Assembly (NCBI GenBank): GCA_001786765.1
Contig: MFTH01000013.1
Location: 19,974-83,973 of the forward strand
Direction of reading: 5' to 3'
Origin: Candidatus Nomurabacteria bacterium RIFCSPHIGHO2_01_FULL_37_25
GTDB taxonomy: Bacteria > Patescibacteriota > Minisyncoccia > Phycocordibacterales > UBA9973
DNA length: 64,000 nucleotides
This document shows, piece by piece, positions 3,795-62,286 of the stretch (position 1 is its first letter; every line of letters starts with the position of its first letter). The notes beneath the pieces are model-generated. The model had not been told where the DNA came from, did not search any database, and saw only the letters and a list, made by a program, of their open reading frames with translations. The position numbers and the translations under genes were made by a program.

Positions 3795-5012
3795 ATGAAA
3801 ATACAAGACATACTTAGTGAAACATATGGAGCTCTCTCTGCCAACAAAGCGCGTTCTGGTCTTACTATGCTAGGTATCGTTATAGGTATCGCTTCTGTTA
3901 TTGCCATGATTTCTATAGGCAACGGGGCTAAAGCGTCTATCCAATCAAGTATTGAAGGGCTCGGCTCAAATCTTTTGACTATTCTTCCGGGGATAGTCCA
4001 GCCCGGGAGAGGCATAGTTTCTTCTGGGCGTGGAGCGGCCCAAACATTGAAAAATGAAGACATTGACATTGTCAAAGCTATAGATGGAGTCGTAGCTGTT
4101 TCGCCAGAAGTCTCAAGCAGGTTTCAAATAATAGCATCAGGCAATAACACAAATACGACTATCACTGGAGTTATGCCGGATTACTTAATCGTGCGTAATA
4201 TAACTCTCTCAAATGGGAACTTCATCTCTGATGGAAATCAGAGAAACATCGGCAGGCAAGCAGTCTTAGGAGCGACCGTGGCGACTGACTTATTTCCTGA
4301 CCAAGATTCTGAAAATCTCTTGGGCAAAACCATCCGCATCAATAAAGTTAATTTTACTGTAATTGGAATATTGGTCGCAAAGGGCGGAACTGGATTTTCC
4401 AGTCCTGATAATATGGTTTTTGTTCCCCTCTCCACAATGCAAAAAATTCTCTCGGGAATGGATTATCTTTCTATGATGGCAGTATCTGTATCTGATAAAA
4501 ATAAAATGGCAGAAGTTAAAGATATGATAACTAATGCATTGCTGGAAAAACATAATGTAGCTGAAGCGGATTTTTCAATAATTTCACAAGAAGATATTTT
4601 AGGAACCCTAACTACCGTGATAGACACTTTTACTCTTTTCCTCGCGGCTATCGCTTCAATCTCACTTTTGGTTGGCGGAATAGGCATCATGAATATGATG
4701 CTGACAACTGTAACCGAACGCACTAAAGAAATCGGACTGCGAAAAGCAATCGGGGCAAAAAGAAAAGATATAAATCTGCAATTTCTTTCGGAAGCGGTAA
4801 TGCTAACATTTATCGGTGGATTTTTGGGAATTATTTTGGGATGGCTTATATCTTTTATAGTGACCTCGACCGGAATTCTCGCCACACAAGTCTCTCTCTC
4901 CTCTGTTCTCTTAGCCTTTGGTGTATCAGCAGGTATAGGTATTATATTTGGATACTACCCTGCCCGCCGAGCGGGTATGTTAAATCCAATTGACGCACTC
5001 CGCTATGAGTAA
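3795..5012 (+). CDS. ABC transporter permease, FtsX/MacB family
   Basis: N-terminal TM helix, large periplasmic domain and a C-terminal four-helix FtsX-like domain (…LTTVTERTKEIGLRKAIGAKRKDI…). Operon with the ATPase gene. Confidence 0.85.
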   Translation: MKIQDILSETYGALSANKARSGLTMLGIVIGIASVIAMISIGNGAKASIQSSIEGLGSNLLTILPGIVQPGRGIVSSGRGAAQTLKNEDIDIVKAIDGVVAVSPEVSSRFQIIASGNNTNTTITGVMPDYLIVRNITLSNGNFISDGNQRNIGRQAVLGATVATDLFPDQDSENLLGKTIRINKVNFTVIGILVAKGGTGFSSPDNMVFVPLSTMQKILSGMDYLSMMAVSVSDKNKMAEVKDMITNALLEKHNVAEADFSIISQEDILGTLTTVIDTFTLFLAAIASISLLVGGIGIMNMMLTTVTERTKEIGLRKAIGAKRKDINLQFLSEAVMLTFIGGFLGIILGWLISFIVTSTGILATQVSLSSVLLAFGVSAGIGIIFGYYPARRAGMLNPIDALRYE

Positions 5013-5030
5013 ACAATAATCCGCCTTGAC

Positions 5031-5050
5031 CAGGTCAAGGCAAGATTAGC
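5031..5050. repeat. Perfect palindrome GCCTTGACC-A-GGTCAAGGC, copy 1 of 2
   Basis: Seen directly. The same palindrome recurs at 18455-18477, both times just downstream of a + strand gene. Confidence 0.7.
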
Positions 5051-5119
5051 AAGCAAAATTAAAATTCTGTTGAATCAGCGGTGTGACTATTTTAGTATAA
5101 CTCTTTGACTTTTCCTACG

Positions 5120-5194
5120 TGGTGCTCTCGCCAAGAATCGAACTTGGATCGCCAGCTTCGCAGGCCAGCATTCTATCCGTTGAACTACGAGAGC
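5120..5194 (-). tRNA. tRNA-Arg (anticodon GCG), CCA encoded
   Basis: Reverse complement GCTCTCG-TA-GTTC-AACGGATA-GAAT-G-CTGGC-CUGCGAA-GCTGG-CGAT-CCAAG-TTCGATT-CTTGG-CGAGAGC-A-CCA folds as a cloverleaf with a perfect 7-bp acceptor stem and a TTCGATT T-loop. The anticodon loop CU-GCG-AA gives anticodon GCG. Confidence 0.75.
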
Positions 5195-5260
5195 AATATT
5201 TTACATTAGCAGTTTTTGGGTAAAAATCAAAATTGGATATTGAATGCAGGTAAGAAAAAT

Positions 5261-5289
5261 TTGACATTTGAGGCATCAAGTGTTATAAT
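5261..5289 (+). promoter_or_regulatory. Consensus sigma-70 promoter (TTGACA, 17 nt spacer, TATAAT)
   Basis: TTGACA at 5261-5266 and TATAAT at 5284-5289 with an exactly 17-nt spacer, directly upstream of the Fn3-like repeat protein gene. Confidence 0.6.
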
Positions 5290-5325
5290 GGGGGAGTGTT
5301 TAATAAGATAATTAAATTTTCAAAA

Positions 5326-7654: not shown

Positions 7655-10450
7655 ATGCCAATGCTCGAAATAAAAAAAAGAAATGGGAATATTGTTCCTT
7701 TTGATGTAGAAAAAATTACTGCCGCAATGGGTAAAGCATTTATCGCATCAAATCAACCTCTCCCTAAGGATACACTGCTAGATATAACCAAAGATATTGT
7801 TCGAACTTTGGAAGACCAATTCCCTGAACAAGTTCCTTCTGTAGAACACGTGCAAGATCTTGTTGAACTCGCTCTTATGAAAGCTGGGTTTCTTGATGTC
7901 GCAAAGAATTACATTGTTTATCGTTATGAACACACTAAAATACGCGCCGAGAAGAAACAGGAATTCTTAGAAAAAGTAGAAACCAAAGGATTTGTCGTAC
8001 ATACCCGAGACGGAAGCAAAGAACTCTTTTCTGAAAAAAAAGTTCGCGAAACACTTGCGGTGTTTATAAAGGGATATGAATCTATAATAGATATTGATCT
8101 AGTCCTCACCCAACTTAAACATGATCTTTACGAAGGTATCACAACGGACGAAATATCACGATCGCTGACGCTTGTCATGCGCTCGATGATTGAACGCGAT
8201 CCAGCATATTCAAAAATTGCGGCGCGAATGCTTATGGACAGAATATATGCAGATGTCTTTGGTCATGGATACAATACTGCTCAACTTAAAGAAGAGCATT
8301 CAAAAATATTCGCGCGCAATATCAAAGATGCAGTTGCGCGCAATCTGCTTGATGCTCGGATGCTTGATTTTGATCTTATAAAACTTGGCAGTGCGTTACA
8401 ATTAGAAAATGATGATCTTTTTGAATACATGGGGCTTGAGATTCTCGCTTCTCGCTACTGTTTAGAAGATCTGGACGCAAAAAAACCGTTTGAAACTCCA
8501 CAGATGTTTTGGATGCGTATTGCTATGGGACTTTCACTCAATGAGCCTGAGAAAACAAAGATAAAAACAACCCTTGAGTTCTATGATGTGTTGTCGAATT
8601 TCTACTACACCCCTGGCGGTCGCACGCTCTTTCAATCAGGCGCGGTAAAAGCTCAACTCTCTAACTGCTTTTTGAATGTTGTGCCGGACTCGCTTGACTC
8701 TATATTCAAATCTTTTTCTGATAACGCGCAATACCTAAAATGGTCAGGCGGTACAGGAACAGCCTGGAGCAAAGTTCGAGCAACAGGGTCTTTCATTAAA
8801 GGTACAGGTGTGGGAAGCCAAGGGGTAGTTCCATTTCTCAAAATCGCAAATGACATCAATACCGCAATTAATCGTTCCGGCAAGCGACGTGGCGCTGGTT
8901 GCGTGTACCTAGAAACGTGGCATCTTGATATTGAAGATTTTCTTGAGCTTCGTAAAAATACAGGAGACGAGCGACGTCGAACTCACGACATAAACACCGC
9001 TAATTGGGTTCCGGACCTCTTTATGAAGCGTGTGCGCGAAGGGGGCGAATGGACGCTTTTCTCGCCTTCAGATACTCCCGATTTACCAGAACTTTATGGT
9101 AAAGCGTTTGAAGAACAATATAAAAAATATGAAGCAATGGTTGAGCGCGGAGAAATCAAACTCTACAAACGCATCTCTGCGGCTGACCTTTGGAAAAAAA
9201 TGCTAGCCATGTTGTTTGAAACTGGACATCCTTGGATTACCTGGAAAGACCCAAGCAATATCCGAAGTCCACAAGACCACGCAGGAGTAATTCATAATTC
9301 AAATCTCTGTACGGAAATAACCCTCAATACGAGCGAAGATGAAACCGCTGTTTGCACTATTGGATCATTGAACTTTGCAAAATTTGTTAACAACGGGAAA
9401 TTTGATACACATCTCATAAGTCGAGTGACAGAGACGGCAATGCGAATGCTCGATAATGTTATTGACCTAAACTATTATCCAACCGAAGATGCAAAACGCG
9501 GAAATATGCGCCATCGTCCGGTGGCTTTGGGTATCCGCGGTTATCATGATGCATTATACCTTCTCGGCATTCATTTTGATTCAGGAGAAGCGCTTGATTT
9601 TGCGGACGAAAGCATGGAAATCGTCGCATATAATGCCATACTTGCCTCAAGTAAACTCGCCAAAGAAAAAGGAACTTATGAAACATATAAAGGTTCTAAA
9701 TGGGATCGAAACATCTTTCCCCAAGACACCATTGCATTACTTGCGGAAGAACGCGGAGAAGAAGTGCCTCTTCCGAAGAGCGGAAAACTAGATTGGACTC
9801 CCGTGCGTGAACACGTTAAGAAATACGGCATGCGCAATTCAAATACAATGGCAATAGCTCCGACTGCTTCAACAGCGAATTTGGTCGGATGCATTCCATG
9901 TGTAGAACCAATCTACAAAAACATCTATGTGAAATCTAATAAAGAGGGCGATTTTGTGGTCGTAAATAAATATCTAGTTCAAGATTTGAAAACGCTAAAT
10001 CTTTGGAATGACGACATCTTAAATAAAATTAAATATGCTGATGGTAGTATTCAGGAAATTGCGGAGATTCCAACCGACTTGAAAAGAAAATACAAGGAAG
10101 TTTTTGAAATTGAGGGACGTTGGCTAATTGAAGCGGCCGCCAGAAGAGGCCGTTGGATGGATCAATCACAATCCCTTAATATTTTTTATTCTGGCAATTC
10201 AGGTCGTGAACTATCAGAGTTATATTTCCTTGCTTGGAAGTTGGGACTAAAAACAACATATTACCTGCGTACTCTAGGCGCTTCACAAGTCGAAAAAGCA
10301 AGTATCTCGACTGCAGAGTTCGGCGCAACCCATACAAGACAAAAAGTGGTTATCCCAACAGAATCTCCTAAATCAAAAATTGATCCAGCTTTTCTTGCTA
10401 AAGTCGCTATGGGAGAAACAGTCGGTATATGTGAATCGTGCGAAGGATAA
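7655..10450 (+). CDS. nrdA: Ribonucleoside-diphosphate reductase alpha subunit (class Ia, with N-terminal ATP-cone)
   Basis: ATP-cone-like N-terminus (LEIKKRNGNIVPFDVEKI). Class I active-site motif NSNLCTEITL…AVCTIGSLNF. C-terminal Cys pair …CESCEG. The extension in ORF 7586 upstream of Met at 7655 is non-coding-like. Confidence 0.9.
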   Translation: MPMLEIKKRNGNIVPFDVEKITAAMGKAFIASNQPLPKDTLLDITKDIVRTLEDQFPEQVPSVEHVQDLVELALMKAGFLDVAKNYIVYRYEHTKIRAEKKQEFLEKVETKGFVVHTRDGSKELFSEKKVRETLAVFIKGYESIIDIDLVLTQLKHDLYEGITTDEISRSLTLVMRSMIERDPAYSKIAARMLMDRIYADVFGHGYNTAQLKEEHSKIFARNIKDAVARNLLDARMLDFDLIKLGSALQLENDDLFEYMGLEILASRYCLEDLDAKKPFETPQMFWMRIAMGLSLNEPEKTKIKTTLEFYDVLSNFYYTPGGRTLFQSGAVKAQLSNCFLNVVPDSLDSIFKSFSDNAQYLKWSGGTGTAWSKVRATGSFIKGTGVGSQGVVPFLKIANDINTAINRSGKRRGAGCVYLETWHLDIEDFLELRKNTGDERRRTHDINTANWVPDLFMKRVREGGEWTLFSPSDTPDLPELYGKAFEEQYKKYEAMVERGEIKLYKRISAADLWKKMLAMLFETGHPWITWKDPSNIRSPQDHAGVIHNSNLCTEITLNTSEDETAVCTIGSLNFAKFVNNGKFDTHLISRVTETAMRMLDNVIDLNYYPTEDAKRGNMRHRPVALGIRGYHDALYLLGIHFDSGEALDFADESMEIVAYNAILASSKLAKEKGTYETYKGSKWDRNIFPQDTIALLAEERGEEVPLPKSGKLDWTPVREHVKKYGMRNSNTMAIAPTASTANLVGCIPCVEPIYKNIYVKSNKEGDFVVVNKYLVQDLKTLNLWNDDILNKIKYADGSIQEIAEIPTDLKRKYKEVFEIEGRWLIEAAARRGRWMDQSQSLNIFYSGNSGRELSELYFLAWKLGLKTTYYLRTLGASQVEKASISTAEFGATHTRQKVVIPTESPKSKIDPAFLAKVAMGETVGICESCEG

Positions 10451-13859: not shown

Positions 13860-13901
13860 TTGCCTTTATGGGGCTTTTATGTTAAAGTACTTTTTACTAA
13901 C

Positions 13902-14354
13902 ATGAATATAAAAACAACTAATATAAAATTTAGTCCAGTAGATATGGAGGCTCGTAAAAAACTTGATTTCAAATCTGGAGATACAGTCTTCGTTTGGTCA
14001 AAAATTTTAGAAGAAAAAAATGAACAAAAGGGCAAAAAGAAAAATGATTCTAAAAAAAATGAAGCTGGTAAATTCAGACTGCAGGCTTTTGAGGGTATCG
14101 TACTTGCGAGAAAGCATGGGAGAGAGATAGGAGCCACTTTTACTGTAAGGAAAATAGCTTCTGGTGTTGGAGTTGAAAGAATTTTTCCGCTTTATTCTCC
14201 AATGATAGATAAAATTGAAATAACTAAAAGGTCTCGCGCTCGCAGATCAAAACTTTATTATATTCGCGCAAAAGCAGTCAAAGATGTTCGCAATAAAATG
14301 CGTTCTTTCACTAACCAAGAAGAGAAGGTGGACGAAAACTCTCCTCAAGCGTAA
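13902..14354 (+). CDS. rplS: 50S ribosomal protein L19 (with a Lys-rich insertion)
   Basis: GDTVFVWSKI…FEGIVLARKHGREIGATFTVRKIASGVGVERIFPLYSPMIDKIEI…RAKLYYIR matches L19. An extra KNEQKGKKKNDSKKNEAG insert is present. Confidence 0.85.
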   Translation: MNIKTTNIKFSPVDMEARKKLDFKSGDTVFVWSKILEEKNEQKGKKKNDSKKNEAGKFRLQAFEGIVLARKHGREIGATFTVRKIASGVGVERIFPLYSPMIDKIEITKRSRARRSKLYYIRAKAVKDVRNKMRSFTNQEEKVDENSPQA

Positions 14355-14404: not shown

Positions 14405-14490
14405 GCGCGGGTGGCGAAACTGGTAGACGCACTACCTTGAGGTGGTAACGCTCGCAAGGGCATGGAGGTTCAAATCCTCTCCCGCGCACC
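14405..14490 (+). tRNA. tRNA-Leu (anticodon GAG), long variable arm, CCA not encoded
   Basis: GCGCGGG acceptor pairing with CCCGCGC. Anticodon loop UU-GAG-GU. Variable hairpin GCTC-GCAA-GGGC. T-loop TTCAAAT. Discriminator A. Confidence 0.8.
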
Positions 14491-14989: not shown

Positions 14990-15730
14990 ATGAAAAAACT
15001 TATTTTCACAATTCTTGCGACAATCATAATCGGTTCGTTTGCCACAACCGCAAACGCGCAAATGATGGGCGCCCGCCTGCCGGACGGGCAGGGATTTTCT
15101 AATTCTTCGGCGGATTGGGACGCAGTCGTTGAACACACGCTCCGCGAAGAACAAGAAGGCAAAGAGCTTTGGAGTAAACTGCAATCCAAAGAAGTCGTCT
15201 GTGCCGATTTAAATGATGAGCAATATGGAGTGCTTGGCGAGTATTTTATGGGTCAGATGTCGGGCGATTCTCACGCCGCCATGAACGCCATGATGATTCA
15301 AACACACGGTGAAGATGGCGAGGAACAAATCCATATCGTTATGGGCAAGCGACTCTCCGGATGTGAAACCTCGGCGACATTCCCTGCCGGAAGTGACGGC
15401 TGGATGCCGATGATGAACATGATGTGGGGAGGATGGTCTGCCTCGGCTACGCCTTGGCAAGACGGGTCGTCTCCTCTTGATAGCAATAACTCAATAAACA
15501 ATATGATGAATTTTGGATTCGGGCCATTTGGCTCTTTCGGCTGGATTTTTATGATTTTCTGGTGGGTCTTGATTATCGCGGGCATTGTCGCGCTTATCAA
15601 ATGGCTCACGAGCCAATCACACGACACGCACAATCACGAAAAATCCGCGCTTGATGTTCTAAAAGAACGATACGCCAAAGGCGAGATAGACAAGAAGGAA
15701 TTTGAGGATAAGAAAAAGGATTTGAGTTAA
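14990..15730 (+). CDS. Secreted/membrane Met-rich (MxxM/MMNMMWGGW) protein with a C-terminal SHOCT domain; putative metal (Cu) binding
   Basis: Signal peptide, Met/His-rich stretches and a TM helix. The C-terminus ALDVLKERYAKGEIDKKEFEDKKKDL matches the SHOCT motif. GC-rich relative to the genome. Confidence 0.55.
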   Translation: MKKLIFTILATIIIGSFATTANAQMMGARLPDGQGFSNSSADWDAVVEHTLREEQEGKELWSKLQSKEVVCADLNDEQYGVLGEYFMGQMSGDSHAAMNAMMIQTHGEDGEEQIHIVMGKRLSGCETSATFPAGSDGWMPMMNMMWGGWSASATPWQDGSSPLDSNNSINNMMNFGFGPFGSFGWIFMIFWWVLIIAGIVALIKWLTSQSHDTHNHEKSALDVLKERYAKGEIDKKEFEDKKKDLS

Positions 15731-29147: not shown

Positions 29148-30938
29148 ATGTTGCTTTTATTCATTTCATTTATTGCGGGAGTTTTAACAATACTGGCTCC
29201 ATGTATATTACCCCTTCTTCCGGTGATTGTCGGGCATTCTATCACGGATACTACTCCAAGCAGAAGAAGACTTTTTGTGGTTGTGGCATCTCTCTCAATT
29301 TCAATTGTGCTTTTCACCCTTCTTCTCAAAGCAAGCTCTTTACTCATTAATATCCCGGAAGATTTTTGGAAATGGATTTCTGGCGGGATTATTTTTTTAT
29401 TCGGCCTAACTATGGTTTTTCCAAGTCTGTGGGAAAAGTTTTCCTTTGCAAATACTTTAAGTTTGAAATCAAATAAAGTTTTAACAAAAGGATATCAAAA
29501 GAATAGTATTTTTGGAGATATAATCATCGGCGCATCGCTCGGACCTATTTTTTCCGCTTGCAGTCCGACATATTTTGTTATCTTAGCAACGGTCTTACCC
29601 GTCTCACCTTTATTAGGAATTGTCTATCTCTTTGCTTATGTTTTAGGCTTGTCGCTTGCTCTTATTGTCATTGCTCTTTTAGGTGAACATATTATGGCAA
29701 AAGTCGGTAAAGTTTCAGATCCGAGAGGATGGTTCAAAAAGATATTTGGAATTATTTTCATTTTAGTCGCCATAGCTATCATTTCGGGATACGACAAAAA
29801 ACTTCAGATCAGTCTGCTTGACGCAGGATTTTTAGATGTAACCAAAATTGAACAAAAGCTGTTAGAAAAAAATGATAAAAAAAATGCAAGTATAAATATA
29901 AATGATACTTCAAACGCAAAAGAGAATGCTGAAATTCCTGACAAAATCAAGTCAAACAAAGAGTCATTCTTAAGCATTAAAGAAAAAAATAAAAAATATG
30001 TCCTTGCTCCTGAAATAAGCACTCCCGACGATTTCATAAACACCTCTCGACTAAACTCGGGGCAAGCAAGCCCCATAACCATAAGCGAATTTAAGGGTAA
30101 AAAGGTTGTGTTATTAGATATTTGGACATATAGCTGTATAAATTGCCAACGCACTATTCCATATCTAAACAAGTGGTATAAAGAATATGAAGACGAAGGG
30201 CTTGTTATCATCGGTCTCCACACCCCAGAATTTTCTTTTGAAAAAATCCAAAAGAATGTTGAGAAAGCTGTAAAAGATTTCGGTATAAAATATCCTGTGG
30301 TGTTGGATAATGATTTTTCTACTTGGCAAGCTTACAAGAATCAATACTGGCCTAGGAAATACCTGATAGACATAGATGGATATATCGTCTATGACCATGC
30401 TGGAGAAGGTCAATACGAAGAAACAGAAATTGCGATACAAAAAACTCTGAGAGAACGAGCAGATAGACTAGATATGAATGTAGAATTATCTTCAAATATA
30501 TCAAGTCCAGAAAATGTCGTATCTGTGGAATCTGGCAAGGTAAGAAGTCCAGAAATATATTTTGGGTCAGCGAGAAATGAATATTTTGCAAATGGAGTTA
30601 AGGGCCAAACGGGCGAACAAAATCTTTTGATTCCTTCCTCAATATCTCCAAATAAACTCTATCTTAATGGCACGTGGAACATAACTTCCGAATACGCTGA
30701 AAGCAAAAATGCGGGAAGTATTATTTTTAATTATGAAGCCAAAAATGTCTATATGGCAGCCGGATCACCTGAAGGGGTGGAAATAGAAATTTATAAAGAT
30801 GATGTGTTTGTAAAAAAGATAACTATTAAAGACGAAACGCTTTACACACTCATACAAGATACAGATTATGGAAAGCATGTTTTGCGTATAGTGATACCTA
30901 AAGCAGGCTTACAAGCTTTTACATTTACTTTCGGGTGA
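29148..30938 (+). CDS. DipZ-like protein: CcdA/DsbD membrane domain plus a redoxin (CxxC) domain plus a C-terminal beta-sandwich domain
   Basis: The N-terminal CcdA-type TM region has paired Cys (…LAPCILPLLPV…; …FSACSPTYF…). A TlpA-like domain follows (VVLLDIWTYSCINCQRTIPYL), then a roughly 200-aa C-terminal domain. The architecture is that of mycobacterial DipZ. Confidence 0.7.
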   Translation: MLLLFISFIAGVLTILAPCILPLLPVIVGHSITDTTPSRRRLFVVVASLSISIVLFTLLLKASSLLINIPEDFWKWISGGIIFLFGLTMVFPSLWEKFSFANTLSLKSNKVLTKGYQKNSIFGDIIIGASLGPIFSACSPTYFVILATVLPVSPLLGIVYLFAYVLGLSLALIVIALLGEHIMAKVGKVSDPRGWFKKIFGIIFILVAIAIISGYDKKLQISLLDAGFLDVTKIEQKLLEKNDKKNASININDTSNAKENAEIPDKIKSNKESFLSIKEKNKKYVLAPEISTPDDFINTSRLNSGQASPITISEFKGKKVVLLDIWTYSCINCQRTIPYLNKWYKEYEDEGLVIIGLHTPEFSFEKIQKNVEKAVKDFGIKYPVVLDNDFSTWQAYKNQYWPRKYLIDIDGYIVYDHAGEGQYEETEIAIQKTLRERADRLDMNVELSSNISSPENVVSVESGKVRSPEIYFGSARNEYFANGVKGQTGEQNLLIPSSISPNKLYLNGTWNITSEYAESKNAGSIIFNYEAKNVYMAAGSPEGVEIEIYKDDVFVKKITIKDETLYTLIQDTDYGKHVLRIVIPKAGLQAFTFTFG

Positions 30939-31019
30939 ATTCCCCCTCTTTCGTTTTTAGTTACGAAAAAAAGAGGCTACGAGATTTCTCCCGCAACCCC
31001 TATTATGCCGTCTCGCCTA

Positions 31020-31307
31020 CTAGAAGTACGAGTCGGCAGTGAAATGGTAGCCACAGCAAAGGCAGAGTGCAAGGTGGTAGTTCGTAACATGATCTTCCAC
31101 TCTCCCGCATTTTTTGCAGTATTTAGTCTGCACTTCTTTACTCCTCGCCATCGGCTTTCCACAACACCTAGTAATCCAGTATGTCTTCTTACCGAAGATC
31201 CCTGGGTTTGGCTCCATACGCTTCTCGCCCAGGACATCCCACTCGGGCCCATGGTCAAGACACTGACCGTGTAGACACTTCTGATATACAGAATTGTTAT
31301 AGTCCAT
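31020..31307 (-). CDS. Small Cys-rich protein (95 aa, 9 Cys) in a roughly 380-bp GC-rich patch; alternative reading is a structured ncRNA
   Basis: Strong RBS AAAGGAGG 6 nt before the ATG. A hairpin plus T7 run lies after the TAG stop. An upstream hairpin and a -10-like box are present. Local GC is about 50%, and ORFs occur on all frames in this patch. Confidence 0.4.
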   Translation of the reverse strand: MDYNNSVYQKCLHGQCLDHGPEWDVLGEKRMEPNPGIFGKKTYWITRCCGKPMARSKEVQTKYCKKCGRVEDHVTNYHLALCLCCGYHFTADSYF

Positions 31308-31589
31308 AACAATCCTCCTTTCTGGCCACCTGTTTTCTTAGGTGCCAATTACTATAATACACAAAAATAAGTAAATGTTAAGGTCCCGAATGAAAACAAA
31401 AATCAGCATCTCTGCTGTTTCTTATTTCAACTTTTGCGGACTCAGAGATTAAAAAATTTTCTTTTCGCAATTATACCTGAATAATTAAAAAACTTTGTGG
31501 TTTCGACTGTTTATAGCTTTAAATTTGAATTCAAACTTATGGTAGACTCGTATCTTGTTTACACTGAGCGAGTGTAACGAGTCGAAGTG

Positions 31590-31662
31590 TGCGCCCGGTT
31601 GGGATCGAACCAACGACCTTATCCTTAAAAGGGATCTGCTCTACCGACTGAGCTACGGGCGC
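31590..31662 (-). tRNA. tRNA-Lys (anticodon TTT), CCA not encoded
   Basis: Reverse complement GCGCCCG-TA-GCTC-AGTCGGTA-GAGC-A-GATCC-CUUUUAA-GGATA-AGGTC-GTTGG-TTCGATC-CCAAC-CGGGCGC-A folds as a clean cloverleaf. Confidence 0.85.
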
Positions 31663-31733
31663 GTATTATTTATTCGTAAAAAATAACTTATGAATATAAA
31701 ATATATATGAAATAAGCCTAAAAATCAAGGTAT

Positions 31734-37949: not shown

Positions 37950-40181
37950 TTACTCCTGCACGCTGTAAATAATTCGCGTGGTAGTGAGGCTTTTGCTCTT
38001 CAGATTCTTCACTCGCACCTCAACCGGATACTTTTTAGAAGCGCTATCCACAGGAACACGAATCAGCATAGCCCCCCAAAACGTGCCGCCATCAGAATTT
38101 ACACTGACAGGATTCGTAAAATAAGATTCATACGACCAGCCCCTCGGAACTTTTGCGCTGATCTCAAAATCAGAAGAACCACAAAGTACACTATCGATAT
38201 TTTGTAAAATAATATAAAAATAAGAATAGCCCCCCGGGGAAACATCTACTGGTTTAGGATCTCCTGGAGCGCCTCCTCCAGCTATTTGCGGGTACAATAA
38301 TACAACCGCTGGTTTTTGGCGGACACATTTAGGTGAAAGAATCTTTACTTTAAAAGTAATACTAGAATCATCTTGGGCAAGAACGGGGCCGATAACTATA
38401 CCTTGTCCCGGGTCAAACAAACTCTTGCCTCCTTTGAGAAGGGCTACATCTGCCCAGTCTTTGTAGTCCGATGATTTCGGCGTCATATCGAGCAGTCTAG
38501 AAAATGGATATGAGAAAGGCGATAAAGCGCTGTTTATCAGAAGCCCGTTTTGATTGCTGGCCGCCTGGGGAGCATTGCTGACTATACCCGCATCAAACCC
38601 TTTTGGTCGCCGATATTCAACGTAGTAAGGCGCGCTTGGAAAAGACGGCGGAAAAATCTTTGCCGCGCGAACTCCCGATCCAGATTCTAAGGCATCGATG
38701 GTGTATGTTCCTGAAGTGGTAATGGCAAGTGGAGAATCCAACCAGCCCAAGACATCCTTAAAAAAGGCGTTGAAATGAAGCGCGATTGACCCATTACCCA
38801 TAACATCAAACAAATTTCCGTATTCAATATGTTGGCAATTGGAACCCGAGAGAACTTTTTTTGCCCCACATTCCCATGAGTTAGCGTGATACACCCCTAA
38901 ATTGTGTCCAAGCTCATGGCTAAGAATAAAATCTAAGACCGTAAACTCAAAGGGGCGAGTGCCAATAAATGTTGACCACTGGTACGAAAAATTTTGGAGA
39001 CTCCCGATCCACGCAAAAGAAAGGCGATGAATTTCCTCCCCAAGCGATATATCCAACTTTCCGATGCTAGCGAACCCACCACCCATGCTGTCATGGTTAG
39101 CGAAAAAGACGAGTCGCCCGTAGTTTTTTAGATTAATGCCCTCTGATTGAATAAATGAATATATGCCATCGTAATCACTCTCACCCTGGGACATAGGGAC
39201 CTGTGGCCATCGCCTATTTCCAGAAGCATCAATTCCATTACGCGGGGCTGTATACCATCCCACAACATCTCCGCTCCAAGATGTTTTGCCATACGAAACC
39301 TCGTGATAAAACTCCTGCATATTGCTTTCAAAAACTAATCTTTCTGCTTCGTCTCTTGTAAAGGGAACGGGCGGAGAATCAAGGAAATTTATGAGCACAA
39401 TAAGCGTTTTTTGCTCTCCAATACTATCCTGTTGCTCGGTTGCTTGAAGCACCTCAAAAGTATTGTCCGCCGCGACCGCGACTATATTCTCTCCGATCTG
39501 ATATCCTTTTACACGTACGCGAGAGCTCGGCATAAGAGGTTGGCTTGATCCAACAGGATAAAAACTATAACGCTTATTCTCTTGGCGAAGAAAATATTGA
39601 AACTCATCTGTTCTTTTCTCAAAGTCATCTTTGTGAATAACCTCCAAAGTAGCCTCTAAAACCACCGGTTGCTCTGCCTCTCTTTTTACTTCTTCTGGTA
39701 GATCAGCAAGTACAGTTTCTGGGAAAAGTTCCATAAATGCGGTGGCTGGGTCATTTTTAAGGAGCGTGGAAAGTAAATTGCTTCGTTCCCGCAAAAGCTT
39801 GCGCATGGCAGTAATGCTTGTGGTACGGGTTGCTCCGACTTCATTTTTTACTTTTTTGGCAAGTTTTATGGCTTTACCAGAAACCTCTCGTATCTTTTTA
39901 CTTTCTGTGGTCTCCTGGGCACGGATGGAAAAAGTGGGGAACACATCTTCTGACTCTATATACGCAGTATCTTCCTCCATAGCCAGTGTTTTCTCAAATG
40001 TACCCGAGCGGGACGCAAGTAGAGCAAAAGCCACTACCATTCCTACTACAAACATGCCTATCAAAGTCAAAGTGAACAGCGACACACGCTTTTTACCTAT
40101 CACGACAAAATTTCCTTTAAGGAGGTCGAGTGAATGTTTTACCAGTTTGTCTGCGGGGCGGAGAGGGTCCATAGCTTTCAT
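37950..40181 (-). CDS. Large N-terminally membrane-anchored zinc metalloprotease-like protein (HExxHxxGxxH metzincin-type motif)
   Basis: TM helix at about residues 35-55. ILSHELGHNLGVYHANSW is a zinc-binding signature. A C-terminal roughly 250-aa beta-rich domain follows. Confidence 0.6.
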   Translation of the reverse strand: MKAMDPLRPADKLVKHSLDLLKGNFVVIGKKRVSLFTLTLIGMFVVGMVVAFALLASRSGTFEKTLAMEEDTAYIESEDVFPTFSIRAQETTESKKIREVSGKAIKLAKKVKNEVGATRTTSITAMRKLLRERSNLLSTLLKNDPATAFMELFPETVLADLPEEVKREAEQPVVLEATLEVIHKDDFEKRTDEFQYFLRQENKRYSFYPVGSSQPLMPSSRVRVKGYQIGENIVAVAADNTFEVLQATEQQDSIGEQKTLIVLINFLDSPPVPFTRDEAERLVFESNMQEFYHEVSYGKTSWSGDVVGWYTAPRNGIDASGNRRWPQVPMSQGESDYDGIYSFIQSEGINLKNYGRLVFFANHDSMGGGFASIGKLDISLGEEIHRLSFAWIGSLQNFSYQWSTFIGTRPFEFTVLDFILSHELGHNLGVYHANSWECGAKKVLSGSNCQHIEYGNLFDVMGNGSIALHFNAFFKDVLGWLDSPLAITTSGTYTIDALESGSGVRAAKIFPPSFPSAPYYVEYRRPKGFDAGIVSNAPQAASNQNGLLINSALSPFSYPFSRLLDMTPKSSDYKDWADVALLKGGKSLFDPGQGIVIGPVLAQDDSSITFKVKILSPKCVRQKPAVVLLYPQIAGGGAPGDPKPVDVSPGGYSYFYIILQNIDSVLCGSSDFEISAKVPRGWSYESYFTNPVSVNSDGGTFWGAMLIRVPVDSASKKYPVEVRVKNLKSKSLTTTRIIYSVQE

Positions 40182-53641: not shown

Positions 53642-54403
53642 TTAAGAACCGCTACTAGTTAGTTTTATAAATACATCCTCCAGCTTGCCACCACTATATC
53701 CATTTTGTGGCATAGAAGTGTCGTGCATAGCTAGTATCTCGTCCATAGTGCCACTCGCAATTATTTTACCCTTATTAATAATAGCGACATGCTTGGCAAG
53801 TTGTTCGGCTTCTTCAAGATAGTGTGTCGTGAGAAGAATTGTGATGCCTTGTTTGGTGAGAGTTGTAAGGTAATCCCACATACTCCGACGAAGTTCCACA
53901 TCCACACCCGCTGTTGGTTCGTCAAGAATTAGAAATTTTGGTTCGTGGATAAGCGCGCGCGCTATCATGAGACGGCGCTTCATACCACCCGAGAGTTTGA
54001 AGCCTATCTGGTCGCCCTTGTCAGCAAGACCGAGGTCTTCGAGCAGTTTTTTCGCGCGTGGGATAGCGACCGAACGTGGAATGCCATAATACCCAGCCTG
54101 ATTCACCACAATGTCTAGTGGTTTCATAAAAGGGTCAAAATTCACTTCTTGCCCGCAAAGTCCAATCATTTCTCTAGCGCGCTCTGCTTCCTTATCAATA
54201 TCTACGCCAAACACTTCTACTTTTCCAGCTGTTTTTGTGACAAGACCAGTGACAATGCCAATGAGAGTTGTCTTACCAGCGCCATTGGGACCGAGAAGAG
54301 CAAAAAAATCTCCTGCTGGTATTGTGAGGGAGACATCTTTTAGCGCTTCGGGGCCGTGAGCATACTTTTTTTGTAGATTGGTAACGATAAGAGCGTTTTG
54401 CAT
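53642..54403 (-). CDS. ABC transporter ATP-binding protein
   Basis: Walker A GPNGAGKTT, signature LSGGMKRRL, Walker B LILDEPTAGVD. Confidence 0.9.
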   Translation of the reverse strand: MQNALIVTNLQKKYAHGPEALKDVSLTIPAGDFFALLGPNGAGKTTLIGIVTGLVTKTAGKVEVFGVDIDKEAERAREMIGLCGQEVNFDPFMKPLDIVVNQAGYYGIPRSVAIPRAKKLLEDLGLADKGDQIGFKLSGGMKRRLMIARALIHEPKFLILDEPTAGVDVELRRSMWDYLTTLTKQGITILLTTHYLEEAEQLAKHVAIINKGKIIASGTMDEILAMHDTSMPQNGYSGGKLEDVFIKLTSSGS

Positions 54404-61126: not shown

Positions 61127-62286
61127 CTGTCAATGCACTTTTTTTGCTTGGCATTTTTAGAATCTGCTGTCCATGCGCTAAAGCCTTGTTTTCTGTACAC
61201 ACACACAGCCGCGCCGGTGCTACAGGTAAAGTTATCAGCTGCTTTCTTGCATTGTTGTATAATTGCTTCAAATCCTGGCTTAGGATTTCCATCTTTGAAA
61301 GCAGTAGAACAATTAAGAGGTCCGGATATTCCAGCAGCAGAGTAGCAAGCTGGAGTTTCAAAACATTCACTATGAGATTGTAAAAGTATTTGATAAGGTC
61401 CATATGCAGATGAGCCTCCACCCCAATTATAATTTTCGACTGATTTACAACCACTCTCTGGAGTTATTAGACATGAAAAAGTAGCTGCTTGTCCTCCTGT
61501 GATAGGCGTGCCAGCTGCCTGGGCTGCTTCTAAAATAGTTCTTGAGTCACAACTTGTGCCGACACTATTTTGGTTAATCGGACCTCCGTCACCAGCAGTT
61601 ACTTCTCCATCACTATTAGTAACAATAAAATCTTTGTCGGTTATTTTAATAACTAACGGTTTCAAACTTTTTAAATCAGTTTTCAGTAAATCCGGATTTA
61701 TTGTATTTAAAAGCGCGTAAGCACCGAGGGCTATGAGAAGCCCCAAAAGCGCTTGCCATATTTTTTCCTTGCCTGCTTCTTTGGTGTGAGCAAGTTCGCT
61801 TGTCATGTATTCCATTCCCCCTATGACAATCATCACTACGGAAAAAACTGCGCAAAGACCTATAAATATTTTTATCATTGTGTTTAGATATGCGCTTAGG
61901 GCATCATTATTATCCTGCGCAGGAGTAAAAGTTACAAGTTTTCCGTCAACACAACCAGGACTTGTACCAGTGCAAGGCAGCGGGGCTAAAAGTGTATATT
62001 CTGTTGGCCCCCCTCCTTGTGTTTCTGGTGTACCCGGACAGGCAGTAGTTGTGCAGTGGCCTCCACCGCATCCACTCTGGCACAGGGCGGTATTTTCAAA
62101 AGGGACGCAAGTTGCCGGGGTTAATCCGCTATCCTGTGCGTCTCTATTACAAAACCTTCCGGCTTCCACAGCATTCACATGCGCCATCGGGCTAAATATT
62201 CCAACTAGCGTTATCAGTATTAATCCCAGTACTAAAATTTTACTTTTAGCTTCTAGTCTTAATTTATTTTTATCTTTTTTAATCAT
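61114..62286 (-). CDS. TrbC/VirB2-like double-TM hairpin protein fused to a Cys-rich Rpf/transglycosylase-like (lysozyme-like) C-terminal domain
   Basis: Signal/TM helix. A Cys/Gly-rich stretch. …LNTMIKIFIGLCAVFSVVMIVIGGMEYMTS-ELAHTKEAGKEKIW-QALLGLLIALGAYALLN… is a two-helix hairpin as in T4SS pilins. The C-terminus …CKSVENYNWGGGSSAYGPYQI…SECF… resembles the Rpf/transglycosylase-like motif C-ESGGNW…G…YGGLQF. GC-rich relative to the genome. Confidence 0.5.
   Translation of the reverse strand: MIKKDKNKLRLEAKSKILVLGLILITLVGIFSPMAHVNAVEAGRFCNRDAQDSGLTPATCVPFENTALCQSGCGGGHCTTTACPGTPETQGGGPTEYTLLAPLPCTGTSPGCVDGKLVTFTPAQDNNDALSAYLNTMIKIFIGLCAVFSVVMIVIGGMEYMTSELAHTKEAGKEKIWQALLGLLIALGAYALLNTINPDLLKTDLKSLKPLVIKITDKDFIVTNSDGEVTAGDGGPINQNSVGTSCDSRTILEAAQAAGTPITGGQAATFSCLITPESGCKSVENYNWGGGSSAYGPYQILLQSHSECFETPACYSAAGISGPLNCSTAFKDGNPKPGFEAIIQQCKKAADNFTCSTGAAVCVYRKQGFSAWTADSKNAKQKKCIDRWNH

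Follow-up and report, generated by a model that had tools for sequence, protein, structure and literature searches.

A small Cys/His-rich protein family of Patescibacteria, encoded by a structured mRNA and commonly placed behind tRNA genes

In a stretch of 64,000 nucleotides (nt) of Candidatus Nomurabacteria bacterium RIFCSPHIGHO2_01_FULL_37_25 (contig MFTH01000013.1, positions 19,974 to 83,973; hereafter the window), a GC-rich patch next to a tRNA-Lys gene was found to be a protein-coding gene and not a non-coding RNA (ncRNA). The gene (positions 31020-31307 of the window, minus strand, ATG start, stop codon included) encodes a Cys/His-rich protein of 95 amino acids (aa), whose family is restricted to Patescibacteria (Candidate Phyla Radiation, CPR). 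Its transcript is a structured mRNA, which is under selection as RNA, and the patch is a self-contained monocistronic gene with its own promoter, a consensus Shine-Dalgarno (SD) sequence and its own terminator. A first-pass annotation of the window had left the patch undecided between a small Cys-rich protein, thought to be metal-binding or similar to a ribosomally synthesized and post-translationally modified peptide (RiPP), and a structured RNA. We are confident in the description of a conserved gene for a zinc-ribbon-ended protein, with hairpins at its start and stop codons, constrained synonymous sites and adjacency to tRNA genes.

The case for an ncRNA, in which the open reading frame (ORF) would be a by-product of a conserved GC-rich RNA sequence, draws on the GC-rich island in an AT-rich genome, on several frames being open across it, on good folding z-scores and on the tRNA neighbourhood. 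Since a conserved RNA can also give "homologous" spurious ORFs, the coding signal was tested directly. Pairwise diversity among homologues was 0.289, 0.253 and 0.444 at codon positions 1, 2 and 3, respectively, a three-base substitution periodicity that argues against an ncRNA, as does the median dN/dS of 0.24. A complete ORF of similar length was found in every homologue, with gaps clustered at the N-terminus and in the C-terminal tail, and the Cys/His ligands are conserved, as is the SD sequence at an optimal spacing. The AlphaFold model is confident and became better with a deeper alignment (pLDDT 79 with 25 sequences; pLDDT 90 and pTM 0.71 with 73). In Rfam searches with all 4227 models at gathering score only tRNAs passed in the window, and nothing was found on the patch, including RNase P, tmRNA, signal recognition particle (SRP) RNA and 6S RNA; at E<=10 over 30700-31700 the patch gave just fragments of 15-17 bits, and in 12 homologous loci it had no match.

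Other open frames do lie across the patch (123 aa on the minus strand; 89, 50 and 42 aa on the plus strand), as had been pointed out in the first-pass annotation, but they are by-products of the composition of the real gene, because each of the five alternative frames has as many stops as synonymous shuffles of that gene give. In every comparison, conservation was higher in the forward frame than in the +1 and antisense ORFs that overlap it. Triplets of the antisense ORF coincide exactly with those of the gene, and its codon position 1 is the most variable position; the lack of stops in this frame follows simply from the avoidance of TTA, CTA and TCA codons by the protein. Taking these findings together, the ncRNA reading is effectively refuted. 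The structured-RNA option does not hold for an ncRNA but survives as a structured mRNA, with four conserved stem-loops, folding beyond that of shuffled sequences and synonymous constraint. The case shows that a GC-rich island in an AT-rich genome, often used as a guide in the search for ncRNAs, can instead mark a small structured mRNA.

The GC content of the patch, put at about 50% in the first-pass annotation, is slightly lower, at 0.479 over 30960-31339 and 0.483 in the ORF, compared to 0.368 in the whole window, where equally GC-rich stretches of 380 nt represent only 1.3% of all such stretches. The GC content at third codon positions (GC3) of the gene is 0.58, while the 51 long ORFs of the window have a median of 0.31. 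Among homologues, GC3 ranges from 0.58 to 0.79 in genomes of 35-56% GC, with a value of 0.39 in the lineage of locus L019.

The signals for expression of the gene, all of which the first-pass annotation had proposed, were found on the minus strand. A sigma-70-type promoter at 31354-31381 (-35 box TTAACA, 16-nt spacer, -10 box TATTAT) had 10 of 12 matches in the promoter scan, and its boxes align with the TTGAC(T/C) and TATTAT/TATAAT boxes of homologous loci. The SD sequence AAAGGAGG (31314-31321), read from the sequence, lies 6 nt ahead of the ATG and is nearly invariant among 21 homologues. Downstream of the gene, the terminator scan identified an intrinsic terminator at 30965-31001, a GC-rich stem-loop with a U-tract, in which a 13-bp stem AGGGGUUGCGGGAGAAAUCUCGUAGCCUCU (31001-30972) is followed by U7 (TTTTTTT in the DNA). 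The tRNA-Lys(UUU) gene (31589-31662), confirmed by Rfam (70.7 bits) and by ARAGORN, is on the same strand, 281 nt 5' of the ORF. In an alignment of the loci with their flanks, the promoter boxes, a 5' stem-loop, the SD sequence, the first codons, a block of the 3' untranslated region (UTR) and the terminator were all conserved.

Four stem-loops of the mRNA are conserved, including those in the UTRs. The stem-loop GGCACC-UAAGAAAAC-AGGUGGCC at 31324-31346 (helix 1, GGCACC...GGUGGCC) is placed, relative to the -10 box, in a way that suggests it forms the extreme 5' end of the mRNA; 95% of its alignment cells are paired, with compensatory and G-U changes, such as the C-G to U-A change in locus L011. 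Helix 1 belongs to a leader covariance model, R1, which matched once per locus, without a second copy in 262 kb; a leader shared with other genes as part of a regulon was therefore rejected. A second hairpin, helix 4 (31288-31318), sequesters the 3' part of the SD sequence and the AUG, which belong to its 5' arm, the 3' arm being formed by codons 2-6. It is also 95% paired, with compensatory changes in 5 of 12 pairs; the arms are UUGUUAUGG/CUAUAACAA in the window, UUGCUAUGG/CCAUAGCAA in most loci and UUGCCAUGG/CCAUGGCAA in locus L018, and the GUG start of locus L021 is accompanied by a matching change in the helix. The AUG is base-paired in all 21 homologues, 20 of which have a free energy between -8 and -17 kcal/mol. 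Structurally, this is what characterizes an operator, namely a conserved structure that occludes the SD sequence and the AUG.

The stop codon lies in or next to the loop of a third hairpin (helix 18, 31006-31038), with arms GCCGACUCG...CGAGACGGC, to which the final codons of the variable C-terminal tail and the 3' UTR contribute. Compensatory changes were found in 6 of 6 pairs, while just 65% of cells pair in the MAFFT alignment; when homologues were folded singly, about 14 of 22 formed a hairpin arranged in this way from quite different arm sequences. The fourth, the terminator (helix 19), is 90% paired, with compensatory changes in 9 of 12 pairs and a conserved stem tip and loop, GAGAAAUCUC.

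Whole transcripts fold 3.5-4.4 standard deviations better than dinucleotide shuffles. For the body of the coding sequence (CDS), compared to shuffles that preserve protein and codon usage, the mean z was -1.4, with 21 of 22 sequences at or below about zero. One CDS helix, GUGCGG/CUCGCAC, links the codons of the two zinc knuckles and is 99% paired, with wobble-compatible changes only; the remaining CDS helices are 71-85% paired. RNA structure inside the CDS is thus suggested.

Synonymous sites were compared in four pairs of genomes in which the gene keeps its syntenic position, next to the same tRNA and between flanking genes that are orthologous. The proportion of synonymous differences (pS) was 0.36-0.55 for the gene and 0.76-0.87, which is saturated, for flanking orthologues, including ribosomal protein L19. 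The same codon was used at identical residues in 67-80% of cases in the gene, compared to 35-46% in the flanks. Codon choice is position-specific, with Leu encoded by CTT at some alignment columns and by CTC at others, and Pro by CCG, CCC or CCA depending on the column. Given this position specificity and the saturation of L19 in the same genome pair, a global codon bias of a highly expressed gene is unlikely as the source of the constraint, and an overlapping or antisense gene was rejected on the stop counts given above. Recent transfer is also an unlikely cause of the low pS because the position of the gene is conserved in the four pairs. The constraint acts on the nucleotide sequence, and the helices found here explain its cause only partly. 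The gene represents a compact natural case of overlapping protein and RNA constraints, which could be used to test the effect of RNA structure on codon choice.

The homologue search with the 95-aa protein identified 25 close relatives (58-71% identity, all 83-115 aa) in which the Cys and His residues are conserved, and a profile search of 1.84 billion cluster representatives identified 186 clusters at 50% identity, nearly all of about 100 aa. Loci were retrieved from 21 genomes and 42 metagenomes, and the gene and its untranslated regions are conserved across them, far more than chance would allow. Genome records named to phylum are mostly Patescibacteria (Nealson-, Taylor-, Wildermuth-, Portnoy-, Morani-, Wolfe- and Daviesbacteria), and a few labels of metagenome-assembled genomes among the records look generic or mis-binned. 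Protein identity drops with distance roughly as taxonomy predicts (46% for Daviesbacteria); within the same genome pairs it is about 70-75%, compared to about 45% for neighbouring genes. Searches of Pfam, NCBIfam, PHROG and PADLOC with the window protein and with 73 or 6 members assigned no family and gave only marginal, generic zinc-ribbon matches, while comparison of the predicted model with PDB and BFVD folds found no neighbour. No description of this zinc-protein family was found in full-text searches of the literature, and the gene is often absent from annotations or labelled "hypothetical". The family is therefore undescribed; small zinc-ribbon proteins and leaders resembling translational operators are themselves known kinds. 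What is unusual is the combination of start- and stop-codon hairpins, halved synonymous divergence (dS) and systematic placement behind tRNA genes.

Ten longer members carry no Pfam domain that would indicate a fusion, and their extensions look like mis-called starts or unfamiliar sequence. Two family members, P0082 (178 aa) and P0138 (184 aa), have a common, conserved N-terminal extension of about 75 residues without a Pfam match (MRIWVxTxxxxxVNFxPETxEExVxLDKVLGYxPWKTxPIGxKCWKKIG...), which may be a fused partner domain. At the other end, the C-terminal tail is variable and has diverged with insertions and deletions (indels). In locus L017 the ORF (5001-5291) stops at HF-stop, several codons short of its relatives, and the sequence that follows is still similar to the tail codons of those relatives; evidently, the tail varies or can be dispensed with.

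The protein contains 10 Cys and 6 His in its 95 aa, and the translation shows exactly the Cys pattern recognized in the first-pass annotation (C11-x4-C16, C48C49, C64-x2-C67 and C82-x-C84C85). Three Cys (C64, C67 and C82) do not vary among 73 diverse members; C16, H19, C49 and C85 are each kept in at least 90% of these, and C11 and H13 in most. The family consensus reads C-x-HG-x-CL-x-H-x-P-x-WE ... P-x-P-x-x-FG ... CCG-x-x-M-x-R ... C-x-KCGR ... A-x-C-x-CCG, in which many residues other than Cys are conserved as well, among them W23, P21, F38, G39, K41, T42, M53 and A54. The predicted structure is all-beta, with strands at residues 23-25, 30-33, 42-48, 51-64, 70-81 and 88-90; in the AlphaFold model the first knuckle, C64-x2-C67, is at the tip of a long beta-hairpin formed by strands 51-64 and 70-81. 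The two conserved CxxC pairs, C64-x2-C67 and C82-x2-C85, fit the definition of a zinc ribbon, in which two such pairs lie 10-20 residues apart, each at a beta-turn. The model thus predicts an all-beta fold with a long basic beta-hairpin and a C-terminal C4 zinc ribbon (C64-x2-C67 ... C82-x2-C85). A further conserved set of putative ligands (C16, H19, C49 and usually C11 and H13) suggests another structural metal site. The proposal of a metal-binding protein is supported in this form, as two probable structural zinc sites, by the conserved ligands and the match to zinc ribbons. Moreover, segment 38-70 is strongly basic, with eleven Lys or Arg and one acidic residue counted from the sequence, suggesting that the protein could bind nucleic acid.

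Residues 58-95 marginally match PDB profiles of uS14 type Z, eL43, Rpb12/RpoP and eS27 (E 0.0025-0.07), the best such matches of the protein, whereas residues 1-57 match nothing in the family or structure searches. With these proteins (uS14 type Z, eL43/L37ae, eS27 and Rpb12/RpoP) it shares a C-terminal part of 35-40 residues with two CxxC knuckles 14 residues apart on beta-hairpins, as well as being small, basic and highly conserved. It differs from them in that the marginal matches cover just one third of the protein and leave the N-terminal 57 residues (CxHGxCLxHxPxWE...PNPGxFG) unmatched, in having no Pfam or NCBIfam membership and no fold neighbour, and in being encoded outside a ribosomal-protein operon. 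The candidate that the protein is itself ribosomal uS14 type Z or eL43 was rejected, as the NCBIfam S14 model scored 15.1 bits, with a cut-off of 54 (E 0.015), and the PDB matches (E 0.0025-0.05) extended over 30-36 residues only. An HNH or endonuclease VII nuclease, considered for the C..C..DH..P arrangement, was also rejected; the window protein had no Pfam match at E<=10, no such family was among the 25 listed for the 73 members, and there were no nuclease matches in PADLOC or PHROG.

The small size and high Cys content would be consistent with a RiPP precursor, as proposed in the first-pass annotation, or with a metallothionein-like metal store. Metallothioneins typically have a Cys content above the roughly 10% of this protein. 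For both, the predicted beta domain and the many conserved residues that are not ligands count against the assignment. Against a RiPP there is also the absence of radical-SAM proteins, cyclodehydratases and lanthionine synthetases at the examined loci, where neighbours included no maturase or other conserved protein-coding gene and contexts differ completely, as well as conservation along the whole sequence rather than in a leader followed by a variable core. We regard either identity as hardly credible.

Adjacency to tRNA genes is a recurrent feature of the genomic context, seen at about 60% of loci. A same-strand tRNA ends 79-435 nt upstream of the gene in 14 of 22 genome loci, and one lies at most 500 nt upstream in 20 of the 34 metagenome loci with enough upstream sequence, as well as in L030; the chance expectation is about 1%, from our own estimate of about one tRNA per 20 kb. 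The identity of the tRNA varies (Lys-UUU; Leu-GAG, -CAA, -UAG and -UAA; Arg-UCG, -GCG, -CCG and -CCU; Phe; Gly), and no protein-coding neighbours are conserved, as these differ from locus to locus. Between tRNA and promoter, an A-tract, a 5-bp hairpin and a T-tract show compensatory changes in 9 loci (L002 4880-4919 and equivalents). In the window this element, with the hairpin CAGCAGAGATGCTG, lies at 31394-31420 (minus strand), and the terminator scan matched on both strands at 31404-31417; it is the terminator of the tRNA transcript and reads as bidirectional. A conserved small RNA (sRNA) in the spacer was rejected, as the spacer sequence is kept in a subset of loci and has no convincing structure besides this terminator.

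One divergent member, found in loci L028 (1943-3279), L029 and L064, has 92 aa (MAYDHVFYTCPHGNKRC...) and lacks the conserved leader and the upstream tRNA. Unlike at the other loci, its gene sits in an operon-like arrangement, 26 nt behind small membrane-protein genes.

As to function, a zinc-stabilised nucleic-acid-binding factor, most likely RNA-binding and tied to translation or to the expression of stable RNAs, would fit the protein. Initiation would require opening of the hairpin over the SD sequence and the AUG, which would make it a natural control point, and synthesis may be gated there, perhaps through binding of the protein to its own mRNA, in the manner of ribosomal proteins; alternatively, the start hairpin could respond to temperature or to some other factor. 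The 5' hairpin and the terminator would protect a highly expressed short message. These functional proposals, namely an RNA-binding zinc factor, gating at the start hairpin and a message stabilised by hairpins, are tentative. Several points weigh against them. The function is derived from fold type, charge distribution and context alone, the zinc-ribbon matches are marginal and generic, and autoregulation of the gene by its protein is pure inference. Structure inside the CDS is moderately supported, considering its pairing, the one helix with wobble changes only and the mean z, and does not settle the cause of the synonymous constraint. Finally, the divergent lineage of L028 and L029 has neither leader nor tRNA.

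By comparison with known systems, the start hairpin resembles operators that sequester the SD sequence and the start codon, such as ribosomal-protein leaders, the operator of MS2 coat protein and replicase, and ROSE and fourU thermometers, in that a hairpin of the free energy given above holds the AUG and the end of the SD sequence; it is conserved, with compensatory changes, across all homologues. Unlike in those systems, the 3' arm is formed by codons 2-6, so that protein and RNA constraints interlock, and a matching stop-codon hairpin, absent from those systems, is present; no Rfam leader family matches and no ligand is known here. The coding region of E. coli cspA mRNA takes part in a functional structure, and ompA-type 5'-terminal hairpins stabilise their messages. 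The message described here is likewise short, monocistronic and probably highly expressed, with a hairpin at its 5' end, and combines folding of the whole message above that of shuffles with constrained synonymous sites in the gene; it differs from cspA and ompA in having no sequence or protein similarity to them.

Further readings concern the unit as a whole. The transcript could be a dual-function RNA, which encodes the protein and also has an RNA job of its own, as a riboregulator or scaffold linked to the neighbouring tRNA genes; this would explain the conservation of its nucleotides. The constrained synonymous sites with their position-specific codons, the GC content of 50-60% regardless of genome GC, as in stable RNAs, the four stem-loops, folding z-scores of -3.5 to -4.4 and the position among tRNA genes would all be in line with such a role. 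However, the best-supported helices are mostly typical of any regulated, stable mRNA, the CDS helices show little true covariation and the z of the CDS body is modest. Moreover, there is no Rfam match, and the leader model found neither a second copy nor a target-like site in 262 kb. A dual-function RNA therefore appears unlikely.

The unit could also be a small cassette moving horizontally between Patescibacteria and inserting behind tRNA genes, in which case low pS and conserved flanks would reflect recent common ancestry rather than constraint. The tRNA genes that it adjoins are of many kinds, its protein-coding neighbours vary, DNA conservation extends to its promoter, UTRs and spacer, and its GC3 is far above that of the host genomes. 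In addition, a direct repeat of about 20 nt, TTTTTAATCATTGAATTCATA / TTTTGATAAATTGAATTCATA, with the palindromic core TGAATTCA, flanks the unit of promoter, gene and terminator, with about 500 bp between copies, in L002 (4857-4879 and 5380-5402), L010 (4863-4882 and 5361-5380), L017 (4848-4868 and 5375-5395) and L004 (about 3373 and about 3889). Single copies are present in four further loci, none occur elsewhere within those loci, and in L010 two more spacer blocks are duplicated on both sides of the unit. The repeat could be a binding site for a regulator or a relic of insertion. Set against a cassette are the halved pS in the four genome pairs with the same syntenic position, which favours vertical descent and constraint, a protein identity that falls roughly with taxonomy, with a C-terminal tail that diverged with indels, the presence of one copy per locus or window, and the absence of a recombinase from a unit whose sole gene encodes a non-enzymatic protein of 100 aa. 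The cassette reading is thus disfavoured, and we consider it very improbable. An integrative mobile element at the tRNA gene was rejected on similar grounds, as the unit contains no recombinase and occurs once per locus, none of the direct repeats overlaps the tRNA, and syntenic positions are kept in four genome pairs.

A broader reading is that the unit represents a component of translation or of stable-RNA expression specific to Patescibacteria, in which an RNA-binding zinc protein, possibly associated with the ribosome or with tRNA, would control its own synthesis by way of the start-codon hairpin, and selection would also act on the folding of its entire mRNA, which would thus be a bifunctional or "structural" mRNA. 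This is doubtful as it stands; if true, it would account for the synonymous constraint, the GC content resembling that of stable RNAs and the placement behind tRNA genes. Patescibacteria have tiny genomes, with a large share of genes without known function. Taking into consideration that the protein is conserved beyond its neighbours, has strong expression signals of its own and has no family or fold assignment, the gene is a promising candidate for a core function of this large radiation that has yet to be described.

Elsewhere in the window, ARAGORN reported a "tRNA-???" with a two-base anticodon at 14405-14490 (plus strand), which scored 48 bits with the Rfam tRNA model and has the loop CUUGAGG; it is a class-II tRNA, probably Leu(GAG). 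This tRNA follows an L19-like ORF (13860-14354). The pair of L19 and tRNA-Leu(GAG) precedes the zinc-protein gene in L010, L013 and L025; in the window the gene sits behind tRNA-Lys. Other 380-nt stretches with at least 47.9% GC were found at 8677-9113, 38229-38897, 53699-54368 and 61710-62229, without an Rfam match at gathering score. The GC peak of the window, up to 53% with a GC3 of 0.54, is at 14990-15730 (plus strand), where an ORF of 246 aa encodes a Met/Gly/Trp-rich membrane protein with a SHOCT-like C-terminus, and where antisense ORFs are also open.

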